Part shown: positions 1 through 11,468 of the stretch, one piece after another
Layout: each line of letters opens with the position of its first letter
Numbering within the stretch: the first letter of the stretch is position 1
DNA from: an uncultured Candidatus Binatia bacterium
Lineage (GTDB): Bacteria; Desulfobacterota; Binatia; UBA9968; JAJDTQ01
Reading direction: 5' to 3'
NCBI GenBank assembly: GCA_965242525.1
Contig: OZ251459.1
Coordinates: 160,001-224,000 of the forward strand
Length of the DNA: 64,000 bases
Notes under the pieces: generated by a model
Told to the model about the DNA's origin: nothing
Seen by the model: only the letters and a program-made list of their open reading frames with translations
Databases searched by the model: none
Translations under genes and position numbers: made by a program

Positions 1-3000
1 GAAGACCTGATCGAAGACCATGCCATGCTCATGGCCGAGCAGATGCATGAGGCCGCGAAATGGGCCGGCTCGGAGGAGGACGTGCGCCATGCGTGCAACA
101 CGCTCATCGACGACTTCATCAAAAAAGCGGGGCTGACCGTCAAAGGTCGGCATGAATACGGCTTGGCTGGTGGGCGCATCGACTCGAAATACGGCGGCGT
201 GGTCATCGAATACAAGCATCCCAAGGGCGCTGGCCGGATCACCGAGAACAAGGACGCGCCAGGCGTCAGGGCTGTGGTCGAGCAGGTCAGGAAGCGGTTC
301 CGGGACTTGCAGGCGGAAGAGCACGTCGGCATGGAGCGAATCCTCGGCGTCGGGTGCGACGGCGATACGCTCGTGTTCGTGCGGAAACACGGGAGCACGC
401 TCGACGCCGAAGACCCGACGCCGGTCACGCCGCAGGCGGTCCAGCGCCTGCTACGCGCTATCGTCTCGCTGGGAGCGCGGGGGCTGTCGTTCACGCCCGA
501 GAATCTGACCGTCCACTTCGGCGCGGAGGGCCAGAGTGCGCAACAGGGCATCCGCCTCATACACGACCTGATCCGCACGACCGACAGTCCCAAGGCCCGG
601 ACGTTTTTCCGCCAGTGGCAGATCCTCTTCGGCGAGGTCTGCGGTTACGACATCCACGGCCGAAACGACAAAGTCCGCAAACTGGCCGACCATTACCAAG
701 CGCCCGACCCGCACCCGGCCGAACTCCTGTTCGCCGTCCACAGCTATTACGCCCTTTTCATGAAAATGCTGGCCGCGGAGATCGTCGCGTCCTTTTCGCC
801 ACTAGGCACTTCGACGCTGAAGAAACTCGTCTCTGCGCCCACGTCGGCCAAATTACGGGACGAACTCCGCAATCTCGAACAGGGCGGCATCTGGTCGCAA
901 CTCGGTATCCGCAACTTTCTCGAAGGCGACCTGTTCTCCTGGTATCTCGACTCCTGGAACGAGGGCTGCGCGGAAGCCGTCAGGGCCATGACAGCCTCCT
1001 TCGACAGATTCGACCCGACCACTCTCAGCGTCGATCCCGCGGAGTCCCGCGACCTGCTCAAGCAGCTCTACCAGCAACTTTTTCCCAAGTCGGTGCGCCA
1101 CGACCTGGGCGAATACTACACGCCCGACTGGCTGGCCGAACTGGTGCTCGACGAACTCGGCTACGACGGCAACCCGGACAAACGGCTGCTGGACCCGGCC
1201 TGCGGCTCGGGCACCTTCCTGGTCATGGCGCTGAACCGGGTCCAGACCTGGTACGACGCGCACCGCCACGAGTGCGGCTTCGGGGAAGACGAACTATTGC
1301 GCAAAATCCTGCGCAACGTCATCGGCTTCGACTTGAACCCGCTGGCCGTCATGGCCGCCCGGACCAACTATCTGCTGGCTGTTCGCGAACTGCTGCGCCA
1401 CGCGGATAACGTCGAGTTGCCCGTCTATCTTTGCGACTCCATCATGACGCCTTCGGAGTACGGCGACATGTTCACCGGGGGCGCCAGTAACGCACGCCAA
1501 CTCAAGACCAGCGCCGGCGATTTCAACATCCCCACGGAAGTTACCGAAAACCGTGAACATATAGGGCGCTACGCCGATACGCTCGAAGCCTGTATCCGCA
1601 ACGGCTATTCACCCGACGAGTTCCTCGAACGGTGCGCCGCGGAGGCCATCCCTGCAACGCAAGGCCAACTGCATCAAGACCTCTACCGCCATCTCCAACG
1701 ACTTGCCGCGGACAACGAGAACGGCATCTGGGCGCGCATCATCAAAAACGCCTTCGCGCCACTGTTCATCGGCGCCGTGGACTACGTGGCCGGCAATCCG
1801 CCGTGGGTAAATTGGGAGCACCTGCCGGAAGGCTACCGCGACGGCATGAAACCGCTCTGGGACAGGTACGAACTCTTTACGCTTTCCGGGTCCGCCGGCC
1901 GCTTGGGCGGCGGCAAGAAGGACATCTCGATGTTGTTCACGTATTCCGCTGTGGACAACTACCTGTCCGAAGGCGGACGGCTCGGATTCGTCATCACGCA
2001 AAGCGTGTTCAAGACCTCGGGGGCAGGTGACGGATTCAGGCGATTGCGCTACAGGCGGAACGACACCGAAACGACCTGGTTGAAACCGCTCATGGTCCAC
2101 GACCTGAGCGCAATGCAGGTCTTCGAAGGCGCGGTCAACCGCACCGCGGTTTTCGTCTGCGAAAAGACGCCGCAGCCTTTCCGGTATCCCGTGCCATACA
2201 CGATGTGGACCGGGGCCGGTCGCATGGCTCAAAGTGAGTCGCTGTCGGATGTCCTCGAGGGGAGCAGACGAGTGCAAATCGAGGCCATCCCGGTCGTTGG
2301 CGCGAAAAATTCTTCCCCGTGGCTCACGGTCCCGCAACGCGCCCTGTCCGGCATTCGGAAAGTGATCGGCGCCAGCGGCTACCGGGCGTATGCGGGCTGC
2401 TGTACGTGGTTGAACGGCGTGTACTGGATCAACGTCGTCAAAACCCTGCCCACCGGCGAACTGCTGATCGAAAACCTTTCGGAAGTGGGGAAAGTCAAGA
2501 TCAAGCACGTACAAGCTGTGGTCGAACCGGACCTGGTCTATCCGTTGCTGCGTGGAAGAGACGTTCGACGCTGGCAGGCTGAACCTTCATCGCACATTAT
2601 TTTGGCCCAGGACCCGAAAATGCGAAAAGGCATCCCCGAAGCCGAAATGAAGCGCCGCTGGCCGAAGACATATGCCTACCTCAAGCAGTTCGAGGGCAGT
2701 TCCGAAGGACCTGAACGCGGGACGTTACGAGGGCGTTCCGGTTACCGGCGGTATTTCAACCCTGACGACGATCCATTCTACTCCATGTACAACGTTGGGC
2801 CTTATACGATGGCGAAATGGAAAGTTGTGTGGAGAGAACAGAGTTCCCTATTCCAGGCTGCCCTTGCCGGATCGAGTGCACGACGGGCCACGTTGCCCGA
2901 CCACAAGCTCATGCTGGTATCCTGCAAAAGCCAACAGGAAGCGAATTTTCTCATTGGAATGCTGAATTCCGCTCCAAGCCTCTTGGCAATTTACTCTTAC

Positions 3001-3246
3001 GTCATTTCAACTTCGACCTCGACACATGTTCTCGGCAATGTGTCCGTCCCCCAGTTCGACAAGGCCGACGCCGCTCACACTCGGCTGGCTGAACTCTCAC
3101 GCCAATGCCACGTTGCGGCAAGAAAAACCGGCGCGCAGGAGTTGAAGGAATTGGAGTCTGCAATCGATGAGGCGGGAGCCGGAATCTGGGGCATTACGAC
3201 GCCCGAACTGAAGGCGATTCAGGAGGCCTTGGCCGATGCGAAATGA
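1..3246 (+). CDS. Single-chain restriction-modification enzyme (type IIG/Eco57I-like: nuclease + N6-adenine methyltransferase + specificity domain); probably 5'-truncated by the window edge
   Basis: N-terminal PD-(D/E)xK-like motif (RIDSKYGGVVIEYK), GEYYTP, motif I LDPACGSGTF, motif IV GNPPW. The frame is open from base 1 (EDLIEDHAML), so the true start may lie upstream of the ATG at 25. Confidence 0.88.
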   Translation, partial: EDLIEDHAMLMAEQMHEAAKWAGSEEDVRHACNTLIDDFIKKAGLTVKGRHEYGLAGGRIDSKYGGVVIEYKHPKGAGRITENKDAPGVRAVVEQVRKRFRDLQAEEHVGMERILGVGCDGDTLVFVRKHGSTLDAEDPTPVTPQAVQRLLRAIVSLGARGLSFTPENLTVHFGAEGQSAQQGIRLIHDLIRTTDSPKARTFFRQWQILFGEVCGYDIHGRNDKVRKLADHYQAPDPHPAELLFAVHSYYALFMKMLAAEIVASFSPLGTSTLKKLVSAPTSAKLRDELRNLEQGGIWSQLGIRNFLEGDLFSWYLDSWNEGCAEAVRAMTASFDRFDPTTLSVDPAESRDLLKQLYQQLFPKSVRHDLGEYYTPDWLAELVLDELGYDGNPDKRLLDPACGSGTFLVMALNRVQTWYDAHRHECGFGEDELLRKILRNVIGFDLNPLAVMAARTNYLLAVRELLRHADNVELPVYLCDSIMTPSEYGDMFTGGASNARQLKTSAGDFNIPTEVTENREHIGRYADTLEACIRNGYSPDEFLERCAAEAIPATQGQLHQDLYRHLQRLAADNENGIWARIIKNAFAPLFIGAVDYVAGNPPWVNWEHLPEGYRDGMKPLWDRYELFTLSGSAGRLGGGKKDISMLFTYSAVDNYLSEGGRLGFVITQSVFKTSGAGDGFRRLRYRRNDTETTWLKPLMVHDLSAMQVFEGAVNRTAVFVCEKTPQPFRYPVPYTMWTGAGRMAQSESLSDVLEGSRRVQIEAIPVVGAKNSSPWLTVPQRALSGIRKVIGASGYRAYAGCCTWLNGVYWINVVKTLPTGELLIENLSEVGKVKIKHVQAVVEPDLVYPLLRGRDVRRWQAEPSSHIILAQDPKMRKGIPEAEMKRRWPKTYAYLKQFEGSSEGPERGTLRGRSGYRRYFNPDDDPFYSMYNVGPYTMAKWKVVWREQSSLFQAALAGSSARRATLPDHKLMLVSCKSQQEANFLIGMLNSAPSLLAIYSYVISTSTSTHVLGNVSVPQFDKADAAHTRLAELSRQCHVAARKTGAQELKELESAIDEAGAGIWGITTPELKAIQEALADAK

Positions 3247-3300
3247 CGGCTATGGAAGTCGGTCGGATCTCCGAGGACATGGGGCAGGGGGGCGAGGATC

Positions 3301-5052
3301 ATGGCGCAGGCTCCAGTGAACGAGACGAGGTCCACCACCGCCGAAGACACCCTGGCGGCCAAGAGCCGGGACCGGAGCGTGGTCTCCGGCGGCCATCTGG
3401 TGGCGTCGGCGCTCAGGAACGAGGGCGTCGATACCATATTCACGCTGTGCGGCGGCCATATCATCGACATCTACGACGGCTGCATCGACCACGGCATCCG
3501 GGTGGTGGACGTGCGCCACGAGCAGGTGGCGGCCCATGCTGCGGACGGCTACGCCCGGCAGACGGGCCGGCTGGGCTGCGTGGTGACCACCGCGGGGCCC
3601 GGCTTCACCAACGCGTTGACCGGCATCGCCACCGCGTTCCGTTCCGAGAGCCCGGTGCTCCACATCGGCGGGCAGGGCGCCCTCACCCAGCACAAGATGG
3701 GTTCGCTGCAGGACCTGCCGCACGTGGACATCGCCGCGCCCATCACCAAGTTCTCGGCCGGAGTGCGCTCCACCGAGCGCATTGCCGACATGGTGACCAT
3801 GGCCGCGCGCGAATGCTTTGCGGGGGCTCCGGGTCCCAGCTACCTGGAGATCCCCCGGGACGTGCTCGACCGGGAGGCGCCGGTGGAGAAGGTCGTGGCG
3901 CCGCAACCCGGAGGTTACCGGGCGTCCACCAAGTCCATCGGGGACCCCGCGGACGTGGAACGGCTGGCGGAGCTCCTGGTCCGATCCGAGCGTCCCGCGG
4001 TCCTGCTCGGCAGCCAGGTGTGGACCTGCCGGGGACACGAGGCGGCCGCGGCCCTGTTCAAGTCCCTCAACGCGCCCTGCTACATGAACGGGGCGGCCCG
4101 GGGCATCCTGCCGCCCGGCGACCCACACTACTTCAACCGCACCCGGGCCGACGCCTTCCACGAGGCCGACGTCATCGTGGTGGTGGGCACGCCGTTCGAC
4201 TTCCGCATGGGCTACGGCCGGCGGCTGCGCGCCGAAGCGGCCGTGGTCCACATCGACATGGACTACCGCACGGTGGCCAGGAACCGCGACGTCTCCCTGG
4301 GGCTGGTGGGCGACCCCGGCGCCGTGCTGAAGGCGGTGCACGACGCAGTGGAGGAACGCAAGGACAACGGCGCCGGCGCCCGGACCGGGTGGCTCGAGCG
4401 TCTCCGGGACCTGGAGGAGGAGAGGCTGCGGAAGCTCATGCCGCTGTTCCGCTCCGACGCCAACCCCATCCATCCCTACCGGGTGGCCTGGGAGCTCAAC
4501 CGGTTCCTCACCGAGGACACCATCTACATCGGCGACGGCGGCGACGTGGTGACCATCAGCGCCCAGGCGGTGGAGCCTCGTGCCCCCGGCAACTGGATGG
4601 ACCCGGGGGCGCTGGGGTCGTTGGGGGTGGGCACCGGGTTCGCGCTGGCCTCGAAGCTGGCGCACCCGGAAAAGGAAGTGCTGTGCTACTATGGGGACGG
4701 CTCCTTCGGCATGACCGCCTTCGACATGGAGACCGCCAACCGGTTCGGCGCCCCCTACATCGCGGTCATCGGCAACAACTCCGCCATGAACCAGATCCGC
4801 TACGGCCAGCTCTCCAAGTACGGCGAGGAACGCGGCAACGTGGGGAACCTCCTGGGGGACGTGCCCTTCTCGAAGTTCGCCGAGATGCTGGGCGGGTACG
4901 GCGAGGAGGTCACCGACTGCAACGAGGTCGCGCCGGCGCTGGGCCGTGCGCGGCAGGCGGTGCGGACTTCCGGCAAGTCCGCGGTGGTCAACGTCTGGGT
5001 GGACGCGGGGGAATGGGCCCCCGGCACCAAACGGCAGACCATGTACCGGTGA
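3301..5052 (+). CDS. oxc: ThDP-dependent enzyme, oxalyl-CoA decarboxylase/2-hydroxyacyl-CoA lyase-like
   Basis: VRHEQ..AHAADGYAR, ThDP motif GDGSFG...NNS; directly upstream of formyl-CoA transferase. The fold call is firm; the oxc assignment rests on context. Confidence 0.75.
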   Translation: MAQAPVNETRSTTAEDTLAAKSRDRSVVSGGHLVASALRNEGVDTIFTLCGGHIIDIYDGCIDHGIRVVDVRHEQVAAHAADGYARQTGRLGCVVTTAGPGFTNALTGIATAFRSESPVLHIGGQGALTQHKMGSLQDLPHVDIAAPITKFSAGVRSTERIADMVTMAARECFAGAPGPSYLEIPRDVLDREAPVEKVVAPQPGGYRASTKSIGDPADVERLAELLVRSERPAVLLGSQVWTCRGHEAAAALFKSLNAPCYMNGAARGILPPGDPHYFNRTRADAFHEADVIVVVGTPFDFRMGYGRRLRAEAAVVHIDMDYRTVARNRDVSLGLVGDPGAVLKAVHDAVEERKDNGAGARTGWLERLRDLEEERLRKLMPLFRSDANPIHPYRVAWELNRFLTEDTIYIGDGGDVVTISAQAVEPRAPGNWMDPGALGSLGVGTGFALASKLAHPEKEVLCYYGDGSFGMTAFDMETANRFGAPYIAVIGNNSAMNQIRYGQLSKYGEERGNVGNLLGDVPFSKFAEMLGGYGEEVTDCNEVAPALGRARQAVRTSGKSAVVNVWVDAGEWAPGTKRQTMYR

Positions 5053-5072
5053 CCCGCGGACCAGGGAACGTC

Positions 5073-6353
5073 ATGGACAAGGCACTCTCCGGCATTCGCA
5101 TCCTGGACATGACCCACGTGCAGGCAGGCCCCACCTCCAGCCAGCTCATGGCCTTCCTGGGAGCGGACGTCATCAAGCTCGAATCCCCCGCGGGGGACGC
5201 CACGCGCCGGCAACTCCGGGACATGCCGGACGCGGACAGCCTCTACTTCACCATGCTGAACTGCAACAAGCGGTCCATCACTGTGAACCTGAAGAACGCC
5301 CGAGGCAAGGAGGTCTTCACCCGGCTGGTGCAGGCGTGCGACGTGCTGCTGGAGAACTTCGGCCCCGGCGTGCTGGAGCGGCTCGGTTTCGGCTGGGAGA
5401 AGGTGCACGAACTGAACCCCCGGCTGGTCATGGGCTCCATCAAGGGCTTCGGCAGCGAGGGGCCCTACGCCTCGTTCAAGGCCTACGAGAACGTGGCCCA
5501 GGCCATGGGCGGGGCCATGAGCACCACCGGGCTGTTCGACGGCCCTCCGGTGGCCACCGGCGCGCAGATCGGCGACTCGGGCACCGGCGTGCACCTGCTG
5601 GCGGGCATATTGGCGGCGCTGCTCCAGCGGGAGCGCACGGGACGCGGCCAGTACGTGGAATGCGCCATGATGGACTGCGTCATGAACCTCTGCCGCGTCA
5701 AGTGGCGGGACCACCAGCGCCTCGACCGCGGCCCGCTGGCAGAGTACTCGGTGCAGGAGTTCGAGGACTTCACGCCCCGGGCGGGCAACGACTCCGGCGG
5801 CGGGCAGCTCGGCAACGCGGTGCCGTGCAAGCCCGGCGGCGCCAACGACTACCTCTACGTGGTGGTCCAGGAGCACGTGTGGAACGCCCTGGCCGCCCGC
5901 ATCGGCGGCGGTTCGCTGGCCGCGGACCCGCGCTTCGCCGACATCGACGCCCGGCGCGCCAACCAGGCGGAGATGTGGCGCCTGCTGGCGGACTTCGCCC
6001 GGGACTACACCAAGTGGGAGCTCATGGAGATCCTCAACGAGCTCGACGTTCCCTGCGGCCCGGTCATGAGCACCGCGGACCTGGCCGACGACGAGCACGT
6101 CCAACTCCGGGAGATGATGGTGGAAGTGGATCATCCCGAACGCGGCCCGTGGCGCAACGTGGGCTGCCCCATCAAGCTCTCGGACTCCCCCGTGGAGGTC
6201 CGCCCCTCCCCCCTGCTGGGCGAGCACACCGACGAGGTCCTGCGCGAGGTCCTGGGCTACGGCGCTGAAGAGGTCGCCCGGCTCCGGCAGGAGGGGGCGT
6301 TCACGCGGGAGCCGCCGGCTCAGTCCGGCAACGTGAAGAAAGGTAAGTCTTGA
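5073..6353 (+). CDS. frc: Formyl-CoA transferase (CoA-transferase family III)
   Basis: MDKALSGIRILDMTHVQAGP, DSLYFTMLNCNKRS, catalytic-Asp motif QIGDSGTG, PRAGNDSGGGQ. True start is the ATG at 5073 inside the 3243..6353 ORF. Confidence 0.92.
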   Translation: MDKALSGIRILDMTHVQAGPTSSQLMAFLGADVIKLESPAGDATRRQLRDMPDADSLYFTMLNCNKRSITVNLKNARGKEVFTRLVQACDVLLENFGPGVLERLGFGWEKVHELNPRLVMGSIKGFGSEGPYASFKAYENVAQAMGGAMSTTGLFDGPPVATGAQIGDSGTGVHLLAGILAALLQRERTGRGQYVECAMMDCVMNLCRVKWRDHQRLDRGPLAEYSVQEFEDFTPRAGNDSGGGQLGNAVPCKPGGANDYLYVVVQEHVWNALAARIGGGSLAADPRFADIDARRANQAEMWRLLADFARDYTKWELMEILNELDVPCGPVMSTADLADDEHVQLREMMVEVDHPERGPWRNVGCPIKLSDSPVEVRPSPLLGEHTDEVLREVLGYGAEEVARLRQEGAFTREPPAQSGNVKKGKS

Positions 6354-7114
6354 TGGCCAAGTGCAGACTGGCCGATTGGCAGGCGGAGAGTCTGCGGCTC
6401 TCCGCTTTCTTGGCCGAAGCGATGGACCCGACGAAGATGCGCTTCTGGGAGTCCCTGGTCGGGAGCCCGCCGGAAGAGCTGCGCAACCGGCCGCAACAGC
6501 AGTTGTTCACCGAGGAAGGTCCCTTCCTCGATGGGCGGCTTCGTGTCCAGGCGAGCAACAATCGAATAGACTGGATGTTGTTCCCGGCCCTCGACAATCC
6601 TCGTTCCGAACTGCCTGTAGTCGGGCCGTATGACGTTCTGGATCAGGGTTTCCGGGAATTGATGCGAAGATGGATCGTTGATTGTCCGCCTGTCAACAGG
6701 CTTGGATATGGCGGCGTGTTGCTGCTGCCGGTCGGAAGTTTGCCGGATGCACACGGAAGACTCGACGGGTTGCTCCCGGCGGTTGAGATCGACCCCGGGA
6801 ATACGCGGGATTTCATGTATCGAATCAACAGGAGACGTGTTTCACGCTGTTCCATTGAGGGACTGGAAGTCAATCGCCTGTCAACGTGGTCTGTGGTTCA
6901 GGTCATCGAAACCCTCGTCGAGTTGTCCGCAGACGGCCAGCAAACGCCGAAAGTGACCCACCAGCCGGGATCGAGGAGCATTTGCAGACTGGAGATCGAC
7001 ATCAACACCGCCCCGGAATTCAGCCGGGTACTCGACAGGGATGCCGTACCCGAAGTCTTCGAGGAGCTTGTCGATATCGGCAATGAAATCGCTATGGAAG
7101 GAGACGTTCGATGA
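6353..7114 (+). CDS. Hypothetical protein, TIGR04255-like (first gene of a three-gene cassette)
   Basis: ATG overlaps the frc stop (TGATG); lower-GC codon usage than the flanks; RIDW, VNRLGYG and LEIDINT motifs recall TIGR04255-type proteins (recognised from memory, not searched). Confidence 0.7.
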   Translation: MAKCRLADWQAESLRLSAFLAEAMDPTKMRFWESLVGSPPEELRNRPQQQLFTEEGPFLDGRLRVQASNNRIDWMLFPALDNPRSELPVVGPYDVLDQGFRELMRRWIVDCPPVNRLGYGGVLLLPVGSLPDAHGRLDGLLPAVEIDPGNTRDFMYRINRRRVSRCSIEGLEVNRLSTWSVVQVIETLVELSADGQQTPKVTHQPGSRSICRLEIDINTAPEFSRVLDRDAVPEVFEELVDIGNEIAMEGDVR

Positions 7115-7797
7115 ATGGCGAAGTCGTTTCGACGGAAACCGCCTCTGCACTGCGGAATACGTTCGGTGAACTTGCCACAGGCATGGAATCAGCGTCTCTG
7201 GTGTGGCTTGTGCCAGGTGACGCCACCGAAGACTTGCGGCGGTGGAGTAGTAGGGCGTTTCGAGATCCAACCGGGAACATCATACGGCTTGCCAATGCCC
7301 GGCCGTTGGAGGAGATTGCGGGTGTTGTGGACGGTTGCGCCACCGTCAACAAGAGCACGCCGGTTGCTTCCATCCCTCGCCAAGTGGGAGAGCAATTGAA
7401 CCGCTTGTGTCTGGCCGCTCATGACGAGCAGTTCGAAGCCGGCGTCGAGAGCCGGTTTTCCAGAGGTCTCCAACAACTATTCGCATATGATCCAGCATCG
7501 GTGTTGCAAGCTCTGAGGGTGCGATTGACGAATAACGACGCAAGCTCGGAGGTGTTGGCCGAAATATTGCAGTGGACTTCGCGTCAGGAGGCGGACGCCA
7601 TACGCGCCCTTGTCGTCGATCTGCTGTCAACGGGACTCCATCACACGGCGTCGTTGGTGCGGGACGCGGCAGCGTCAGGGCTGGCCTATCTGGATGAAGG
7701 CGCAGCCATTTCCCACCTCCGGCAAGCCCTCGCAAGAGAGAAGGTGCCCGAGCTTCGGCAGGATTTGGAGGATCTCATCTGCTCGTTGGAGTCCTGA
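7111..7797 (+). CDS. Hypothetical protein with C-terminal HEAT-like repeat (second gene of cassette)
   Basis: ATGA overlap with upstream gene, RBS GGAAGGAG; HEAT-like LVRDAAASGLAYL...AISHLRQALARE..PELR. Confidence 0.7.
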   Translation: MNGEVVSTETASALRNTFGELATGMESASLVWLVPGDATEDLRRWSSRAFRDPTGNIIRLANARPLEEIAGVVDGCATVNKSTPVASIPRQVGEQLNRLCLAAHDEQFEAGVESRFSRGLQQLFAYDPASVLQALRVRLTNNDASSEVLAEILQWTSRQEADAIRALVVDLLSTGLHHTASLVRDAAASGLAYLDEGAAISHLRQALAREKVPELRQDLEDLICSLES

Positions 7798-7802
7798 AGC
7801 TC

Positions 7803-8303
7803 GTGTCGGCGCTCTTCCGAAAGCTGAGCCAGAAACGGCATTGGGATGCCGAGTCCTGGCTTGAGCCGGGAGACCTCCAGGCGGATGCGACCAAATGTCT
7901 GGCGACGAGTGAGAACAAGCTGTCCGTCTTCGTGTTGGAGGAACCTGACGAACAGGTGGAAAGAGTCGTCGCCGCGTTGGCCGTTACTCGAGACAGCTTG
8001 GCGCATCTTGATATGGCCCTTGCCCCTGAAGAGATCCTTGCGCGATGTGGGATTCGACGGGACGGAGTTCCAGGACAGACGGCTGATTTCAAGGTCAACG
8101 AATGGCATCAGGATCTCGTTGAGTTGACGGTTATGAAAATCGCGCGATTCGCTGCCGCCATAAGAAGCGGCGGAGAGATCAGGCGCTATAATTGGAAGAA
8201 AGTGGGAGCGGCAATCCGGCAGTCCTTGAACGCCGGCTACATCGGCCCTGAACACATCAATGGGAAACTGTTCCAGTCGCTGAGAAGGCGAGGGATCCTC
8301 TAG
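7803..8303 (+). CDS. Hypothetical protein, possible ADP-ribosyltransferase-like toxin (third gene of cassette)
   Basis: GTG start 5 nt after the previous stop; N-terminal strand Arg (LFRK), Ser motif (NKLSVF), later His (WHQDL). Function is inferred. Confidence 0.6.
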   Translation: MSALFRKLSQKRHWDAESWLEPGDLQADATKCLATSENKLSVFVLEEPDEQVERVVAALAVTRDSLAHLDMALAPEEILARCGIRRDGVPGQTADFKVNEWHQDLVELTVMKIARFAAAIRSGGEIRRYNWKKVGAAIRQSLNAGYIGPEHINGKLFQSLRRRGIL

Positions 8304-8318
8304 GGGAGGTCACATAAG

Positions 8319-10463
8319 ATGGCAAACAACCATGAAGGACAGGAGGAAGTCCGTGCACTGCTGCACCGGGCGCAGTCGGAAGGCCGGTCGGTGCTCACCA
8401 CGCAGGAATGCGCCGCGGTGTTGCGGGCCTACGGCGTCGCCGTGCCCCGGGACGGCGTGGCCCGCTCGGCCGCAGAGGCCGCGGAGACGGCCGCGGAGTT
8501 GGGGTTTCCGGTGGTGATGAAGGTCGTCTCCGGGGACATCCTGCACAAGAGCGACGCCGGCGGCGTGCTGGTGGGGGTGGCCGACCGGGAGGCTGCGGCG
8601 CGGGGCTACGATACCCTCATGGAGAACGCCCGGGCCTACAAGGCGGACGCGGCCCTGGACGGGGTGCAGGTCCAGGAGATGGTCCCGCACACGGGCGCGG
8701 AGGTCATCGTGGGCGCGGTCACCGACCCGAGCTTCGGCAAGGTGGTGGCCTTCGGGCTGGGCGGCGTGCTGGTGGAAGTGTTGCGGGACGTGACCTTCCG
8801 GCTCGCCCCGGCGAGCCGCGCGGAGGCCCTCTCCATGCTGGACGGCATCGCCGCGGCCCAGGTGCTCCGGGGGGTCCGGGGCCGGAACCCGGTGCACCGG
8901 GAGGCGCTGGCGGACGTCATCGTCAGCGTCTCGGAACTGGTCAACGATTTCCCCGAGATCCGGGAAGTGGATCTCAACCCGGTGCTGGCGGACGCCGCTG
9001 GCGCCACCGCGGTGGACACGGTGATGACCGTCGATTTCACGCCGGGGCCCGAGCCGTACCGGCCGAGCCGGGAGGCCATCGTCTCCGCCATGCAGCGCAT
9101 CATGAACCCCAGGGCCGTGGCGGTGGTGGGCGCGTCGGACGGGGAGGGGAAGATCGGCAACTCGGTGATGAAGAACATCATCAACGGCGGCTATGCCGGC
9201 GCCCTCTACCCCATCAACCCCAGGTTGGACGAGGTCCTGGGCAGGAAAGCCTACAAGAGCGTCAAGGACGTCCCGGGCGAAGTGGACGTGGCCATCTTCG
9301 CGGTGCCGGCCAAGCTCTGCCGGGCGGCCATGACCGAGGTGGGAGAGAAAGGCATACCCGGCGCGGTGATGATCCCGTCGGGCTTTGCCGAGGTGGGCGA
9401 GAGGGAGATGCAGGAGGAGCTCCTGGCCGAGGCGCGGAAGCACGGCGTGCGCGTCATGGGGCCCAACATCTACGGCTTCTACTACACTCCCGCCAACCTC
9501 TGCGCCACGTTCTGCACGCCCTACGACGTCAAGGGTCCGGTGGCGCTGTCGTCCCAGAGCGGCGGCGTGGGCATGTCCATCATCGGCTTCAGCCGCACCA
9601 CCCGCATGGGCGTCTCCGCCATCGTCGGCCTGGGCAACAAGTCGGACCTGGACGAGGACGACCTGCTCACCTACTTCGAACAGGACGACAACACCCAGGT
9701 GGTGGCCATGCACGCCGAGGACCTGAAGGACGGCCGCAGCTTCTACGAGGTGGCCCGGCGGGTGTCGAAGAAGAAGCCCATCGTCATGCTGAAGGCGGGC
9801 CGGACGCAGCTCGGGGCCCGGGCCGCGGCCTCGCACACGGGCGCCCTGGCCGGCGACGACAAGGTCTATGACGACCTCCTGAGAGCCTGCGGGGTGGTGC
9901 GCGCGTACTCCCTCAACGACATGCTCCAGTTCGCCCGGGGGTTGTCGGTGCTGCCGACGCCCAAGGGCGAAGAGATCGTCGTCATCACCGGCGCGGGCGG
10001 GTCGGGGGTGCTGCTGTCGGACGCGGTGGTGGCCAACGGGCTCTCCCTCATGAAGTTCCCCAAGGACCTCGACGAGGGGTTCAAGCAGTTCATCCCCCCG
10101 TTCGGCGCCTCGGGCAACCCGGTGGACATCACCGGCGGAGAGCCCCCCGCCACCTACGAGCGGACCATCCGGTTCGGCCTGGAAGACGACCGCATCCACG
10201 CCCTGGTCCTGGGCTACTGGCACACCATCATCACCCCGCCCATGGTGTTCGCCGAACTGTGCGCCAGAGTGGTCCAGGAGGGCCGGGACAAGGGCATCCA
10301 CAAGCCCGTGGTGGTGTCGCTGGTGGGCGACGTGCAGGTGGAGGAGGCGTCGGAGTACCTCTACGAGAGGGGCATCGTCGCCTGTCCCTACACCACGGAG
10401 CTGCCGGTGGCCGTCCTGGGCGCCAAGTACCGGTGGGCTCGGGGCGCGGGGCTGCTCGGATAG
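8319..10463 (+). CDS. ADP-forming acyl-CoA synthetase (acetate--CoA ligase family; ATP-grasp + CoA-binding domains)
   Basis: FPVVMKVVSGDILHKSDAGGV, AVAVVGAS, GPN, SQSGG, GLGNKSD, phospho-His motif AASHTGALAG, NPVDITG. Confidence 0.9.
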   Translation: MANNHEGQEEVRALLHRAQSEGRSVLTTQECAAVLRAYGVAVPRDGVARSAAEAAETAAELGFPVVMKVVSGDILHKSDAGGVLVGVADREAAARGYDTLMENARAYKADAALDGVQVQEMVPHTGAEVIVGAVTDPSFGKVVAFGLGGVLVEVLRDVTFRLAPASRAEALSMLDGIAAAQVLRGVRGRNPVHREALADVIVSVSELVNDFPEIREVDLNPVLADAAGATAVDTVMTVDFTPGPEPYRPSREAIVSAMQRIMNPRAVAVVGASDGEGKIGNSVMKNIINGGYAGALYPINPRLDEVLGRKAYKSVKDVPGEVDVAIFAVPAKLCRAAMTEVGEKGIPGAVMIPSGFAEVGEREMQEELLAEARKHGVRVMGPNIYGFYYTPANLCATFCTPYDVKGPVALSSQSGGVGMSIIGFSRTTRMGVSAIVGLGNKSDLDEDDLLTYFEQDDNTQVVAMHAEDLKDGRSFYEVARRVSKKKPIVMLKAGRTQLGARAAASHTGALAGDDKVYDDLLRACGVVRAYSLNDMLQFARGLSVLPTPKGEEIVVITGAGGSGVLLSDAVVANGLSLMKFPKDLDEGFKQFIPPFGASGNPVDITGGEPPATYERTIRFGLEDDRIHALVLGYWHTIITPPMVFAELCARVVQEGRDKGIHKPVVVSLVGDVQVEEASEYLYERGIVACPYTTELPVAVLGAKYRWARGAGLLG

Positions 10464-10508
10464 GGGGTCCGGGGACGGGCCGCCAACCACTTGCGGGAGG
10501 GAAGACTC

Positions 10509-11468
10509 ATGGAACGATTGCCTCGCGGGGCGAACTTTCAACGGAGCCTGATGCTGTGGCAGGTCGGGCTGCACATCGCGGGAGACCCGGCGACGCCGTA
10601 CTACGGCAACCGGGACATGTGCATCGCGGTGGGGAGCGGGTCTGCGGAGGACTTCCGCCCCTGGCTGCGCATGTCCACGGGTTCGCCCATCATCGCCCGT
10701 GCGGTGGCCCGGGGGGACCTGGAGATGGCCATGGTCAACCCTTCGGCCTTTCTCACCCAGGCGTACCGGGGCACGGGACTCTTCGATGAGCCGCTGCCTC
10801 TTCGGGTGGTGGCGTGCTACCCGTCCTGGGACCGTTTCGTGTTCATGATCCACCCGCGCACCGGGCTGACGTCGCTGTCGCAGATCAGGGAGCGGCAGTA
10901 CCCGCTGCGGCTGTCCATCCGCGAGGACGCCACCCACTCCACCCGGGTGCTGCTGGACCAGACGCTGGAAATCTACGGGTTCACGCTGGCGGACCTGGAG
11001 TCCTGGGGCGGCAGCCTCCAGCGCAACGGCGGGCCGGGGGACCCGCGGCGGCTGGCGGCGCTGCGGGACGAGACCATCGACGCGGTGTTCGACGAGGGTC
11101 TGGTGCTGTGGTTCGACCAGGCCCTGGAGCGCGGCATGGCGCCGGTGACCCCGGAGGACTTCGCCCTGGAGGCGTTGTGCGCGCTGGGTTGGCGCAAGGT
11201 GACCATGCCCGCGGGCTGCTTTCCTCACCTGGAGGCGGACCACACCTGCCTGGACTACGGCGGGTGGCCGCTCTATGCGCGGGCGTCCCTGCCGGAGGAG
11301 GACGTGTACCGGGTGTGCGAGGCGTTGCAGGAGCGTCAGGCCGAAATCTACTGGGAGAGTTCGTTCACGGGCATCCGGCAGTTGTGGAAGGACACCGAGG
11401 CCACGCCCCTCGACGTGCCGCTCCACTCCGGGGCGGAGAAGTGGTGCAGGGAGCAGGGTTACCTGTGA
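10509..11468 (+). CDS. TAXI/NMT1-like periplasmic-binding-fold protein without an evident signal peptide
   Basis: TGSPIIARAVARGDLEMA, LRVVA, LPEEDVYRVCEAL, C-terminal VPLHSGAEKW typical of TAXI-family receptors. Confidence 0.65.
   Translation: MERLPRGANFQRSLMLWQVGLHIAGDPATPYYGNRDMCIAVGSGSAEDFRPWLRMSTGSPIIARAVARGDLEMAMVNPSAFLTQAYRGTGLFDEPLPLRVVACYPSWDRFVFMIHPRTGLTSLSQIRERQYPLRLSIREDATHSTRVLLDQTLEIYGFTLADLESWGGSLQRNGGPGDPRRLAALRDETIDAVFDEGLVLWFDQALERGMAPVTPEDFALEALCALGWRKVTMPAGCFPHLEADHTCLDYGGWPLYARASLPEEDVYRVCEALQERQAEIYWESSFTGIRQLWKDTEATPLDVPLHSGAEKWCREQGYL

Follow-up and report, generated by a model that had tools for sequence, protein, structure and literature searches.

A three-gene cassette inside the oxalate operon of an uncultured Candidatus Binatia bacterium is best explained as a horizontally acquired, tripartite conflict module of toxin-antitoxin-like type, in which the third gene (g3) is the effector and the first two (g1 and g2) form its control; we put the probability of this reading at roughly 0.55. 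The cassette occupies positions 6353-8303 of the window, the 64,000-nt stretch of the genome that was analyzed (this genome is labeled G000, its relatives G0xx, and individual loci Lxxx), and encodes the proteins P0001, P0002, and P0003. Judged from sequence, it appears to be a toxin-antitoxin or defense-type module with an ADP-ribosyltransferase (ART)-fold effector, built from unnamed families in what seems to be an undescribed architecture. A first-pass annotation of the same DNA had proposed a chaperone-antitoxin-toxin system with an ART-like effector. That proposal is supported in part, the trio being foreign, linked, and mobile and g3 giving an ART-type model; the chaperone analogue and the membership of g1 in the TIGR04255 family are not supported.

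The three genes lie on the forward strand: g1 (P0001, 253 aa) at 6353-7114, g2 (P0002, 228 aa) at 7111-7797, and g3 (P0003, 166 aa, GTG start) at 7803-8303. Upstream are oxc (3301-5052; TPP_enzyme N, M, and C domains) and frc (5100-6353; CoA_transf_3, E = 8.5e-104), and downstream is an ADP-forming acyl-CoA synthetase (8319-10463; ATP-grasp_5, CoA_binding_2, Succ_CoA_lig, and Ligase_CoA_2). The tight coupling of the open reading frames (ORFs) between frc and the ligase gene is exactly as first described: the frc stop codon TGA (6351-6353) shares its A with the g1 ATG at 6353 (TGATG, 6351-6355), g1 and g2 overlap by ATGA (7111-7114), and g2 and g3 are separated by 5 nt, the g3 GTG being preceded at a distance of 10 nt by GGAG. 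Neither a sigma-70-like promoter nor an intrinsic-terminator-like site was found within 3000-10600; this result and the start/stop overlaps make cotranscription of the trio with the oxalate operon plausible. The earlier suggestion that the host operon promoter drives the cassette is plausible on the same grounds, with expression itself presumed.

The base composition of the trio sets it apart from its neighbors. GC content and GC content at third codon positions (GC3) are 0.583 and 0.685 in g1, 0.590 and 0.646 in g2, and 0.569 and 0.659 in g3, as against 0.700 and 0.930 in oxc, 0.691 and 0.935 in frc, and 0.694 and 0.944 in the synthetase gene. The lower-GC codon usage reported for the cassette is therefore real (GC3 of 0.65-0.69 versus 0.93-0.94), and the composition profile along the window dips at the trio, in the same trough as GC3.

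Comparison with related genomes establishes that the trio is a horizontally acquired insertion, foreign to the operon. Searches with frc located this gene in 23 of the 24 other genomes of the genus, and only one of these (G023) carries the cassette at the frc site, with protein identities to the window of 86.6% (g1), 88.6% (g2), and 94.6% (g3). Among the other 22, the site is empty in 14, where the synthetase gene starts 24-167 nt past the aligned frc end; in the remaining 8, the synthetase gene is absent from the 1.5 kb examined after frc, and other genes are found there. The abutment of frc and the synthetase gene in 14 of 22 relatives, the sharing of the cassette with G023 only, and the low GC3 together identify the trio as an insertion. 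When the 3' ends of frc from G000, G023, and ten empty-site genomes are aligned as DNA, the insert is seen to take the place of the short frc-synthetase spacer. The left junction falls at 6318-6353 (forward strand), where the frc frame departs from the empty-site sequence and gains approximately 8-10 C-terminal codons before a new stop codon, TGA, overlapping the start of g1; the right junction is a short spacer at 8304-8318 (forward strand) with the ribosome-binding site of the synthetase gene (GGGGAGG ... ATG at 8319). No terminal repeats, which would be a signature of transposition, were found around the insertion. In G023, g1 and g2 are intact and g3 (L009:5549-5947, minus strand) is cut to 132 aa, its last ~37 codons having been swapped for ~130 bp of unrelated sequence ahead of the synthetase start; this truncation may represent decay of the effector.

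The same comparison bears on the idea that the trio is an accessory part of oxalate or oxalyl-CoA metabolism, conserved with oxc and frc. The location inside the operon, overlaps of the translational-coupling type, and the lack of any promoter- or terminator-like site between oxc and the synthetase gene would suit such a role. It is contradicted by the distribution, since the cassette was not found at the site in 22 of the 23 other frc-bearing genomes of the genus (14 empty, 8 with other content) and is thus not a conserved part of oxc-frc operons; the same trio also recurs in unrelated contexts, including a sister cassette between UbiD and ThiC genes at two same-genus loci with scanned flanks (L012 and L014) and many different genes in other phyla, and its GC3 is far below that of the operon. 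We reject a metabolic role as having next to no likelihood.

The trio is a conserved mobile unit of sporadic distribution. Relatives of g3 are present in 9 of 41 related genomes (G000 counted) and, apart from that of G023, are only ~25-31% identical to the g3 of the window; each is preceded by low-GC3 ORFs of ~256 and ~233 aa, and alignments place the same family at all three positions of these cassettes. A pattern scan of species-representative genomes yielded 23 g3-seeded loci spanning Acidobacteriota, Alpha- and Gammaproteobacteria, Burkholderiales, Chloroflexota, and Planctomycetota, as well as Rhodothermales, Latescibacterota, Desulfomonilaceae, Heliomicrobium, and Acetivibrio. Hidden Markov models (HMMs) for g1 and g2 were built from the window and its relatives, so that matches on those 8 sequences arise by construction and matches on the 23 loci do not. 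In 22 of the 23 loci the gene immediately before g3 matches g2 (the last locus begins at g3), and in 14 a g1 match is found upstream; among the 9 loci without one, 4 have an unrecognized ORF of 216-256 aa overlapping the g2 start, 3 look truncated, and 2 are cut by contig ends.

A metagenome scan seeded with the closer members of the P0001 family kept 80 loci, with a readable third ORF in 50. The order g1-g2-g3 was recovered by HMM in 37 of these 50, mostly with 4-nt overlaps, and 13 have two other ORFs of similar size behind g1; the other 30 of the 80 run into a contig end or have no adjacent ORF that could be found. Of 400 further genomes sampled from the phylum, 2 have a P0001-type g1 gene. 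The three genes thus co-occur in other genomes, with g2 and g3 adjacent in 22 of 23 loci and all three in order in 37 of 50; the trio is widespread across phyla and belongs to a family of mobile three-gene modules.

A variant of the cassette is found on phages as well: homologs of g3 are present in three Acinetobacter phage records, each time as the last gene of a low-GC set of three. In the temperate Acinetobacter phage Ab105-1phi (KT588074.1, 38458-40396; L229:2156-4094), three consecutive hypothetical genes (226, 215, and 197 aa) come after tail-fiber genes and a gene annotated as "secretion activator protein"; of these, the last is homologous to g3 (E = 1.5e-37) and the middle one resembles g2 (E = 2.4e-7), the first being unrecognized. 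The GC content of this trio is 0.28, and that of the other sequence examined there 0.39. It lies near the end of the linear record, beside a transposase and a UmuC fragment.

Flanking genes were scanned at 26 loci (138 ORFs; three long ORFs and the five of L010 were left out), and defense- or mobility-type domains were found within 3.5 kb of the cassette in 11 of them. These neighbors comprise a PIN-TPR-GreAB-C system, patatin with HTH, a helicase/DUF4391/DNA methylase group, integrases, three transposases, NYN and Fic, T5orf172 and AAA_14, an Eco57I-type enzyme, and DUF5131. At one Caldilineaceae locus (L019:2-4085), a g2-g3 pair stands beside the PIN-TPR-GreAB-C type system (HTH_upst_double_PIN, PIN-TPR-GreABC, and Permuted_GreAB-C).

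Several cassettes headed by a P0001-type g1 carry different genes behind it. The third ORF of L209 encodes a PIN domain that scores above the cut-off (31 bits, E = 4.2e-7); that of L187-189 is weakly Fic/Doc-like, with a Pfam match below the cut-off (E = 4.3e-4) and a match to PADLOC PDC-S04 (E = 1.9e-5), and that of L066 has a weak match to HEPN_IX (E = 6.1e-4). In L152 the second gene matches PDC-M32A (E = 4.2e-9) and the third, weakly, PDC-M32B (E = 0.0094), and the second gene of L160 has a clear HEAT_2 match (38.1 bits). Profile comparison (hhalign) of the variant second and third genes with g2 and g3 gave no signal. The sequences point to an exchangeable third position, with an interchangeable toxin following a g1-g2 module that is conserved. 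Overall, the first gene is conserved, the middle one often ends in a HEAT-like tail, and the last varies, with known toxin domains among its variants; this pattern is our chief ground for reading g3 as the effector. General traits of toxin-antitoxin systems are also present: the genes are small, adjacent, and co-oriented, and the unit is sporadic and mobile with an exchangeable toxin position.

The family of g3 has at least 513 members and no Pfam, NCBIfam, or PADLOC match; g3 itself matches phrog_10743, a PHROG of unknown function (E = 1.6e-17), and a PDB sequence search with the g3 profile returned nothing useful. An AlphaFold2 (AF2) model built from a 51-sequence alignment (pLDDT 82.4, pTM 0.78) has an ART-like part followed by a C-terminal extension of two helices. 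An unbiased VIA structure search of 48,161 representative chains with this model is headed by KptA/Tpt1 (Z 5.6), the VPA0770 toxin (5.2), and DarT (4.8, 4.7, and 4.5). Further down are Tse2, AvrPphF ORF2, Xre-RES (Z 4.4), NarE, Tne2, IcmQ, MbcT (3.8), CopC, and PltA, followed by TreX, RhsP2, pertussis toxin, heat-labile enterotoxin/cholera toxin, ParT (Z 3.2-3.6), SPN, and Scabin. Judged by the entry titles and by what is known of these proteins, rows 1-9 and 11-21 of this list are ART-fold proteins. A second look with VIA over the top 1000 chains of Foldseek gave ART-fold chains (judged in the same way) in the first 18 rows, with Tpt1/KptA at Z 5.6-6.1 (root-mean-square deviation 2.7-3.3 over 81-88 residues; 14% identity to the Aeropyrum enzyme) and DarT at Z 4.5-4.9. 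A VIA Z under 8 can reflect merely a common arrangement, and with each Z low, the weight of the ART assignment rests on the uniformity of the match lists. On this basis g3 is predicted to be a small ART-fold protein, and the ART-like layout first suggested from its sequence is supported by a model whose matches are dominated, at low Z, by ART-fold chains.

The Arg, Ser, and His that had been singled out in g3 are among the most conserved residues of the family. They lie in the motifs LFRK (residues 4-7), NKLSVF (38-43), and WHQDL (101-105); over 80 distinct members, H102 is found in 80, S41 in 79, D104 in 77, D28 in 75, and R6 in 74, and G91 is invariant. The secondary structure of the model puts R6, S41, and H102-x-D104 on strands 1, 2, and 5 (2-6, 40-45, and 102-106). 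ARTs of the R-S-E type carry Arg, Ser-Thr-Ser, and Glu-x-Glu on strands 1, 2, and 5, and an alternative set consists of H, Y, and E. The conserved R/S/H-x-D set of g3 presumably differs from the catalytic sets of DarT, RES, MbcT, and ParT. The toxins of DarTG, Xre-RES, MbcTA, and ParST are among the structural neighbors of g3, and these systems share its small size, gene adjacency, and mobility; unlike the cassette, they consist of two genes rather than three, their HMMs miss the g3 family, and the partners found here are not of the macrodomain, Xre, or DUF2384 type.

The nearest structural neighbors of g3 raise the question of a nucleic-acid repair or modification module, in which g3 would act like the NAD+ lobe of Tpt1/KptA (RNA 2'-phosphotransferase, 5'-phosphate ADP-ribosylation), g1 would bind nucleic acid, and g2 would be a scaffold. 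Tpt1/KptA is indeed the best structural match (Z up to 6.1), through its NAD+-binding ART lobe, and TBP-like domains of the kind predicted for g1 (see below) bind DNA or RNA-DNA hybrids (RNase HIII/RNase LS, PMC3710099). Tpt1 is, however, a two-lobed enzyme of which only the C-terminal lobe (chain residues ~92-185) aligns, and the 166 aa of g3 are too few for the other lobe; its Pfam family PF01885 matches 0 of 51 g3-family members. The mobile setting of g3 also differs from that of Tpt1, and the replacement of the third gene by PIN and weakly Fic- or HEPN-like proteins is typical of toxins. The sporadic occurrence of the cassette, its low GC, and its presence on a phage suit an element of selfish or defense type, and we regard a repair function as unlikely.

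The second protein, P0002, has one HEAT-like repeat at its C-terminus and an N-terminal half without a match. Its Pfam HEAT_2 match (E = 7.6e-4, 20.1 bits) is under the 27.7-bit cut-off, and no PADLOC match was found at E ≤ 1. Searched against the PDB, the g2-position profile picks up alphaRep/HEAT-like repeat proteins (E = 5.3e-12), and of 59 relatives (46-97% identical), 19 carry a precomputed PF13646. The C-terminal HEAT-like repeat reported for this gene is thus weakly borne out: the profile match and the annotated relatives speak for it, and the HEAT_2 score does not reach the cut-off. The proposed role of g2 is that of an antitoxin or adaptor.

The P0001 family is large (at E ≤ 1e-3 it counts 2,709 cluster representatives, of which 487 reach E ≤ 1e-30), and g1 has no match in Pfam, NCBIfam (E ≤ 1), or PADLOC; Atlas look-ups for g1 and g3 returned unnamed clusters only. 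The AF2 model of g1 (pLDDT 95.5, pTM 0.91) consists of two tandem beta-alpha-beta4-alpha units in two lobes. Foldseek matches it to AdoMetDC/prozyme (E = 1.6e-4) and TBP (E = 7e-4), and VIA to AdoMetDC/prozyme (Z up to 8.1) and TBP (Z 5.5-6.5), the TBP alignments covering 139-152 residues from end to end of the model; the listed matches also include McsB-kinase-domain and similar folds. At the fold level, g1 is predicted to be a TBP/AdoMetDC-like two-lobed sheet platform, of a kind that binds nucleic acids or ligands; its proposed role is that of a sensor or adaptor. The notion that it is a SecB-like chaperone analogue is not supported by this confident model; no SecB-like chain is among the matches listed, a listing that does not exclude SecB likeness. 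Two longer relatives, P0248 (417 aa) and P0295 (342 aa), have their g1-like part at the C-terminus and may be fused forms.

A further possibility is that the roles are reversed, g2 or g1 being harmful and g3 its neutralizer or regulator, or that the three genes are a nontoxic regulatory or structural set carried on mobile elements. The role of g3 as the toxin is putative, G023 keeps g1 and g2 with g3 truncated, and the g3 family has the C-terminal helical extension, which in 18 of 51 members weakly matches SAMD1_SHD, a small helical domain (E = 0.0022 at best). Other observations argue the opposite way: in the variant cassettes the third position is taken by recognized toxin domains (PIN over the cut-off), and g3 combines enzyme-like, near-invariant polar residues with a predicted ART-type fold. 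Toxins are not typically built of HEAT-type repeats or TBP-like saddles, which serve for binding. A reversal of roles or a nontoxic set is accordingly improbable, a little more so than a repair module.

Direct comparison does not bear out the reported resemblance of g1 to TIGR04255 proteins (NCBIfam "sporadically distributed protein"). P0001 does not match the TIGR04255 HMM at E ≤ 1 (the curated NCBIfam cut-off is 30 bits), and the HMM matches 0 of 60 members of the P0001 family, which lacks the N-terminal motif of the TIGR04255 consensus. Profile comparison of P0001-family alignments with TIGR04255 by hhalign is not significant (probabilities, in percent, of 0.4, with E = 0.14, and 0.25), whereas the positive control against the TIGR04255 alignment gave 97.1. 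PDB sequence searches with the g1 and TIGR04255 profiles returned nothing useful. The likeness is one of position in the cassette: both are first genes of ~250 aa that overlap a second gene, and TIGR04255 genes lead three-gene cassettes with other partners.

In all three sister cassettes scanned the first gene is a true TIGR04255 member (61.9-125.2 bits, E = 3.7e-36 to 8e-17), and TIGR04255 genes are present in 20 of the 41 related genomes. At each of the seven TIGR04255-matched loci that were opened, the gene overlaps a second ORF of 223-250 aa, behind which comes a third of 134-289 aa, all with low GC3, and none of these second and third ORFs matches the g2 or g3 HMM. The genome of the window has a second three-gene cassette outside the window (C1:3197057-3198977; L221:1557-3477), with a TIGR04255 gene (70.7 bits), overlapping ORFs encoding 227 and 152 aa, and a GC3 of 0.67-0.70. 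By eye, its third protein has an Arg-bearing first strand and an LSV-x-W motif like those of g3; hhalign detects no relation. A third, weaker candidate in the same genome (C1:16307-17029, minus strand) scores 27.1 bits, under the cut-off.

Among described systems, the closest in organization is CmdTAC, a member of the toxin-antitoxin-chaperone (TAC) systems, in which the chaperone senses a capsid protein and the ART toxin modifies mRNA (PMC11618068). The cassette and CmdTAC have in common three genes, an ART-type effector, two accessory proteins, a sporadic and mobile distribution, and possibly an abortive-defense logic (Vassallo, Doering and Laub 2024, PMC11618068). The differences are that the accessory protein here is predicted to be TBP/AdoMetDC-like, with no SecB-like match seen, that the middle protein is HEAT-tailed, and that the effector gene comes last; furthermore, in a comparison with the ART families of Pfam, g3 shows no sequence relation to any of them. 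The PADLOC candidates PDC-M32 and PDC-S04, which are matched by variant cassettes behind P0001-type g1, are matched by neither g2 nor g3 of the window and, judged by their model names, are candidate systems without a g1-type gene.

A number of observations weigh against a toxin-antitoxin-like module with an ART-fold effector. The search for a known defense system came back empty: PADLOC-DB 2.0.0 has no match for P0001-P0003 at E ≤ 1, and none for two canonical trios at E ≤ 0.01, nor do the three proteins match a defense or toxin-antitoxin model in Pfam or NCBIfam. ART families of Pfam (DarT, RES, PTS_2-RNA, and others) match 0 of 51 g3-family members at E ≤ 10, and Foldseek with the g3 model finds nothing at E ≤ 0.001 in the PDB or the viral BFVD. 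The structural matches of g3 are weak throughout (Z no higher than 6.1), residues 10-30 of the model are unreliable (pLDDT under 50), and the candidate acid is Asp/His, the Glu of known ARTs being absent. Comparison by hhalign of the g3 family with RES, DarT, and Tpt1 alignments made from genome hits gave probabilities ≤0.5; this blank carries no weight, since the control comparisons of these alignments with each other are blank too (≤1.4). The Fic-like and HEPN-like matches of the variant third genes are below curated cut-offs, and the truncation of g3 in G023 fits toxin decay but equally the loss of any dispensable gene. Most cassette flanks are housekeeping genes, and since no baseline was computed, the defense-type neighbors at 11 of 26 loci are context and not enrichment. 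Several metagenome loci are near-identical (L187-189, L190-192, L194-195, and L206-207), so that 37 of 50 overstates the independent support for the gene order.

Under the toxin-antitoxin-like reading, g3 would be a minimal ART-fold effector that most likely uses NAD+ to modify nucleic acid or protein, or destroys NAD+, and so arrests growth. The g1 and g2 proteins would act as its conserved control, holding g3 inactive until some trigger comes; direct neutralization would more likely fall to g2, and sensing or stabilization, or perhaps a share in the neutralization, to g1. The trigger that frees g3 would probably be phage infection or loss of the element; a failing supply of a labile partner is another possible cue. 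The toxicity of g3, its neutralizing partners, its use of NAD+, the trigger, and a function in phage defense are what we infer.

Defense-type cargo may have landed repeatedly at the frc-synthetase junction. In two relatives, G002 (L041:2827-4227) and G012 (L056:172-1479), an AAA_21/AAA_15 ATPase occupies the site instead, and both ATPases match the PADLOC candidate PDC-M07A (E = 3.2e-59 and 3.8e-65). Six further genomes have yet other content at this site, glycosyltransferase-like by eye only. Directly upstream of oxc in the window is a gene for a type IIG restriction-modification enzyme (25-3246, forward strand; Pfam Eco57I/N6_Mtase; PADLOC REase_MTase_IIG, 1061.7 bits, full-length), whose GC content (0.606) and GC3 (0.763) are lower than those of the genome; the oxalate operon therefore has foreign-looking defense DNA on its upstream side too.

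A broader and more tentative interpretation, which we consider possible rather than probable, is that g1-type proteins (the P0001 family and possibly TIGR04255) are TBP-like saddles heading a large, so far undescribed, effector-swapping superfamily of three-gene immune or addiction modules that occurs in bacteria of various phyla and on temperate phages. The saddle would sense a phage or nucleic-acid cue and the HEAT-tailed middle protein would release the toxin, which in this cassette would be a new minimal ART clade with an R/S/H-x-D site; the genome of the window would then hold at least two such modules. No description of the trio and no paper naming TIGR04255 were found in the literature searched (supplements and subscription papers lay outside the search).

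If the interpretation of the cassette as a toxin-antitoxin or defense module is true, it would represent a widespread, unnamed tripartite architecture, in which the relatives of g1 run to thousands and those of g3 to hundreds, all outside any Pfam family, and g3 would found a new small branch of the ART fold with an unusual set of conserved residues. The orphan TIGR04255 family would also gain its first functional setting. For the bacterium itself, this reading would mean that a selfish or defense module has settled inside a metabolic operon, rewriting the 3' end of frc and appearing to ride on the transcription of the operon.

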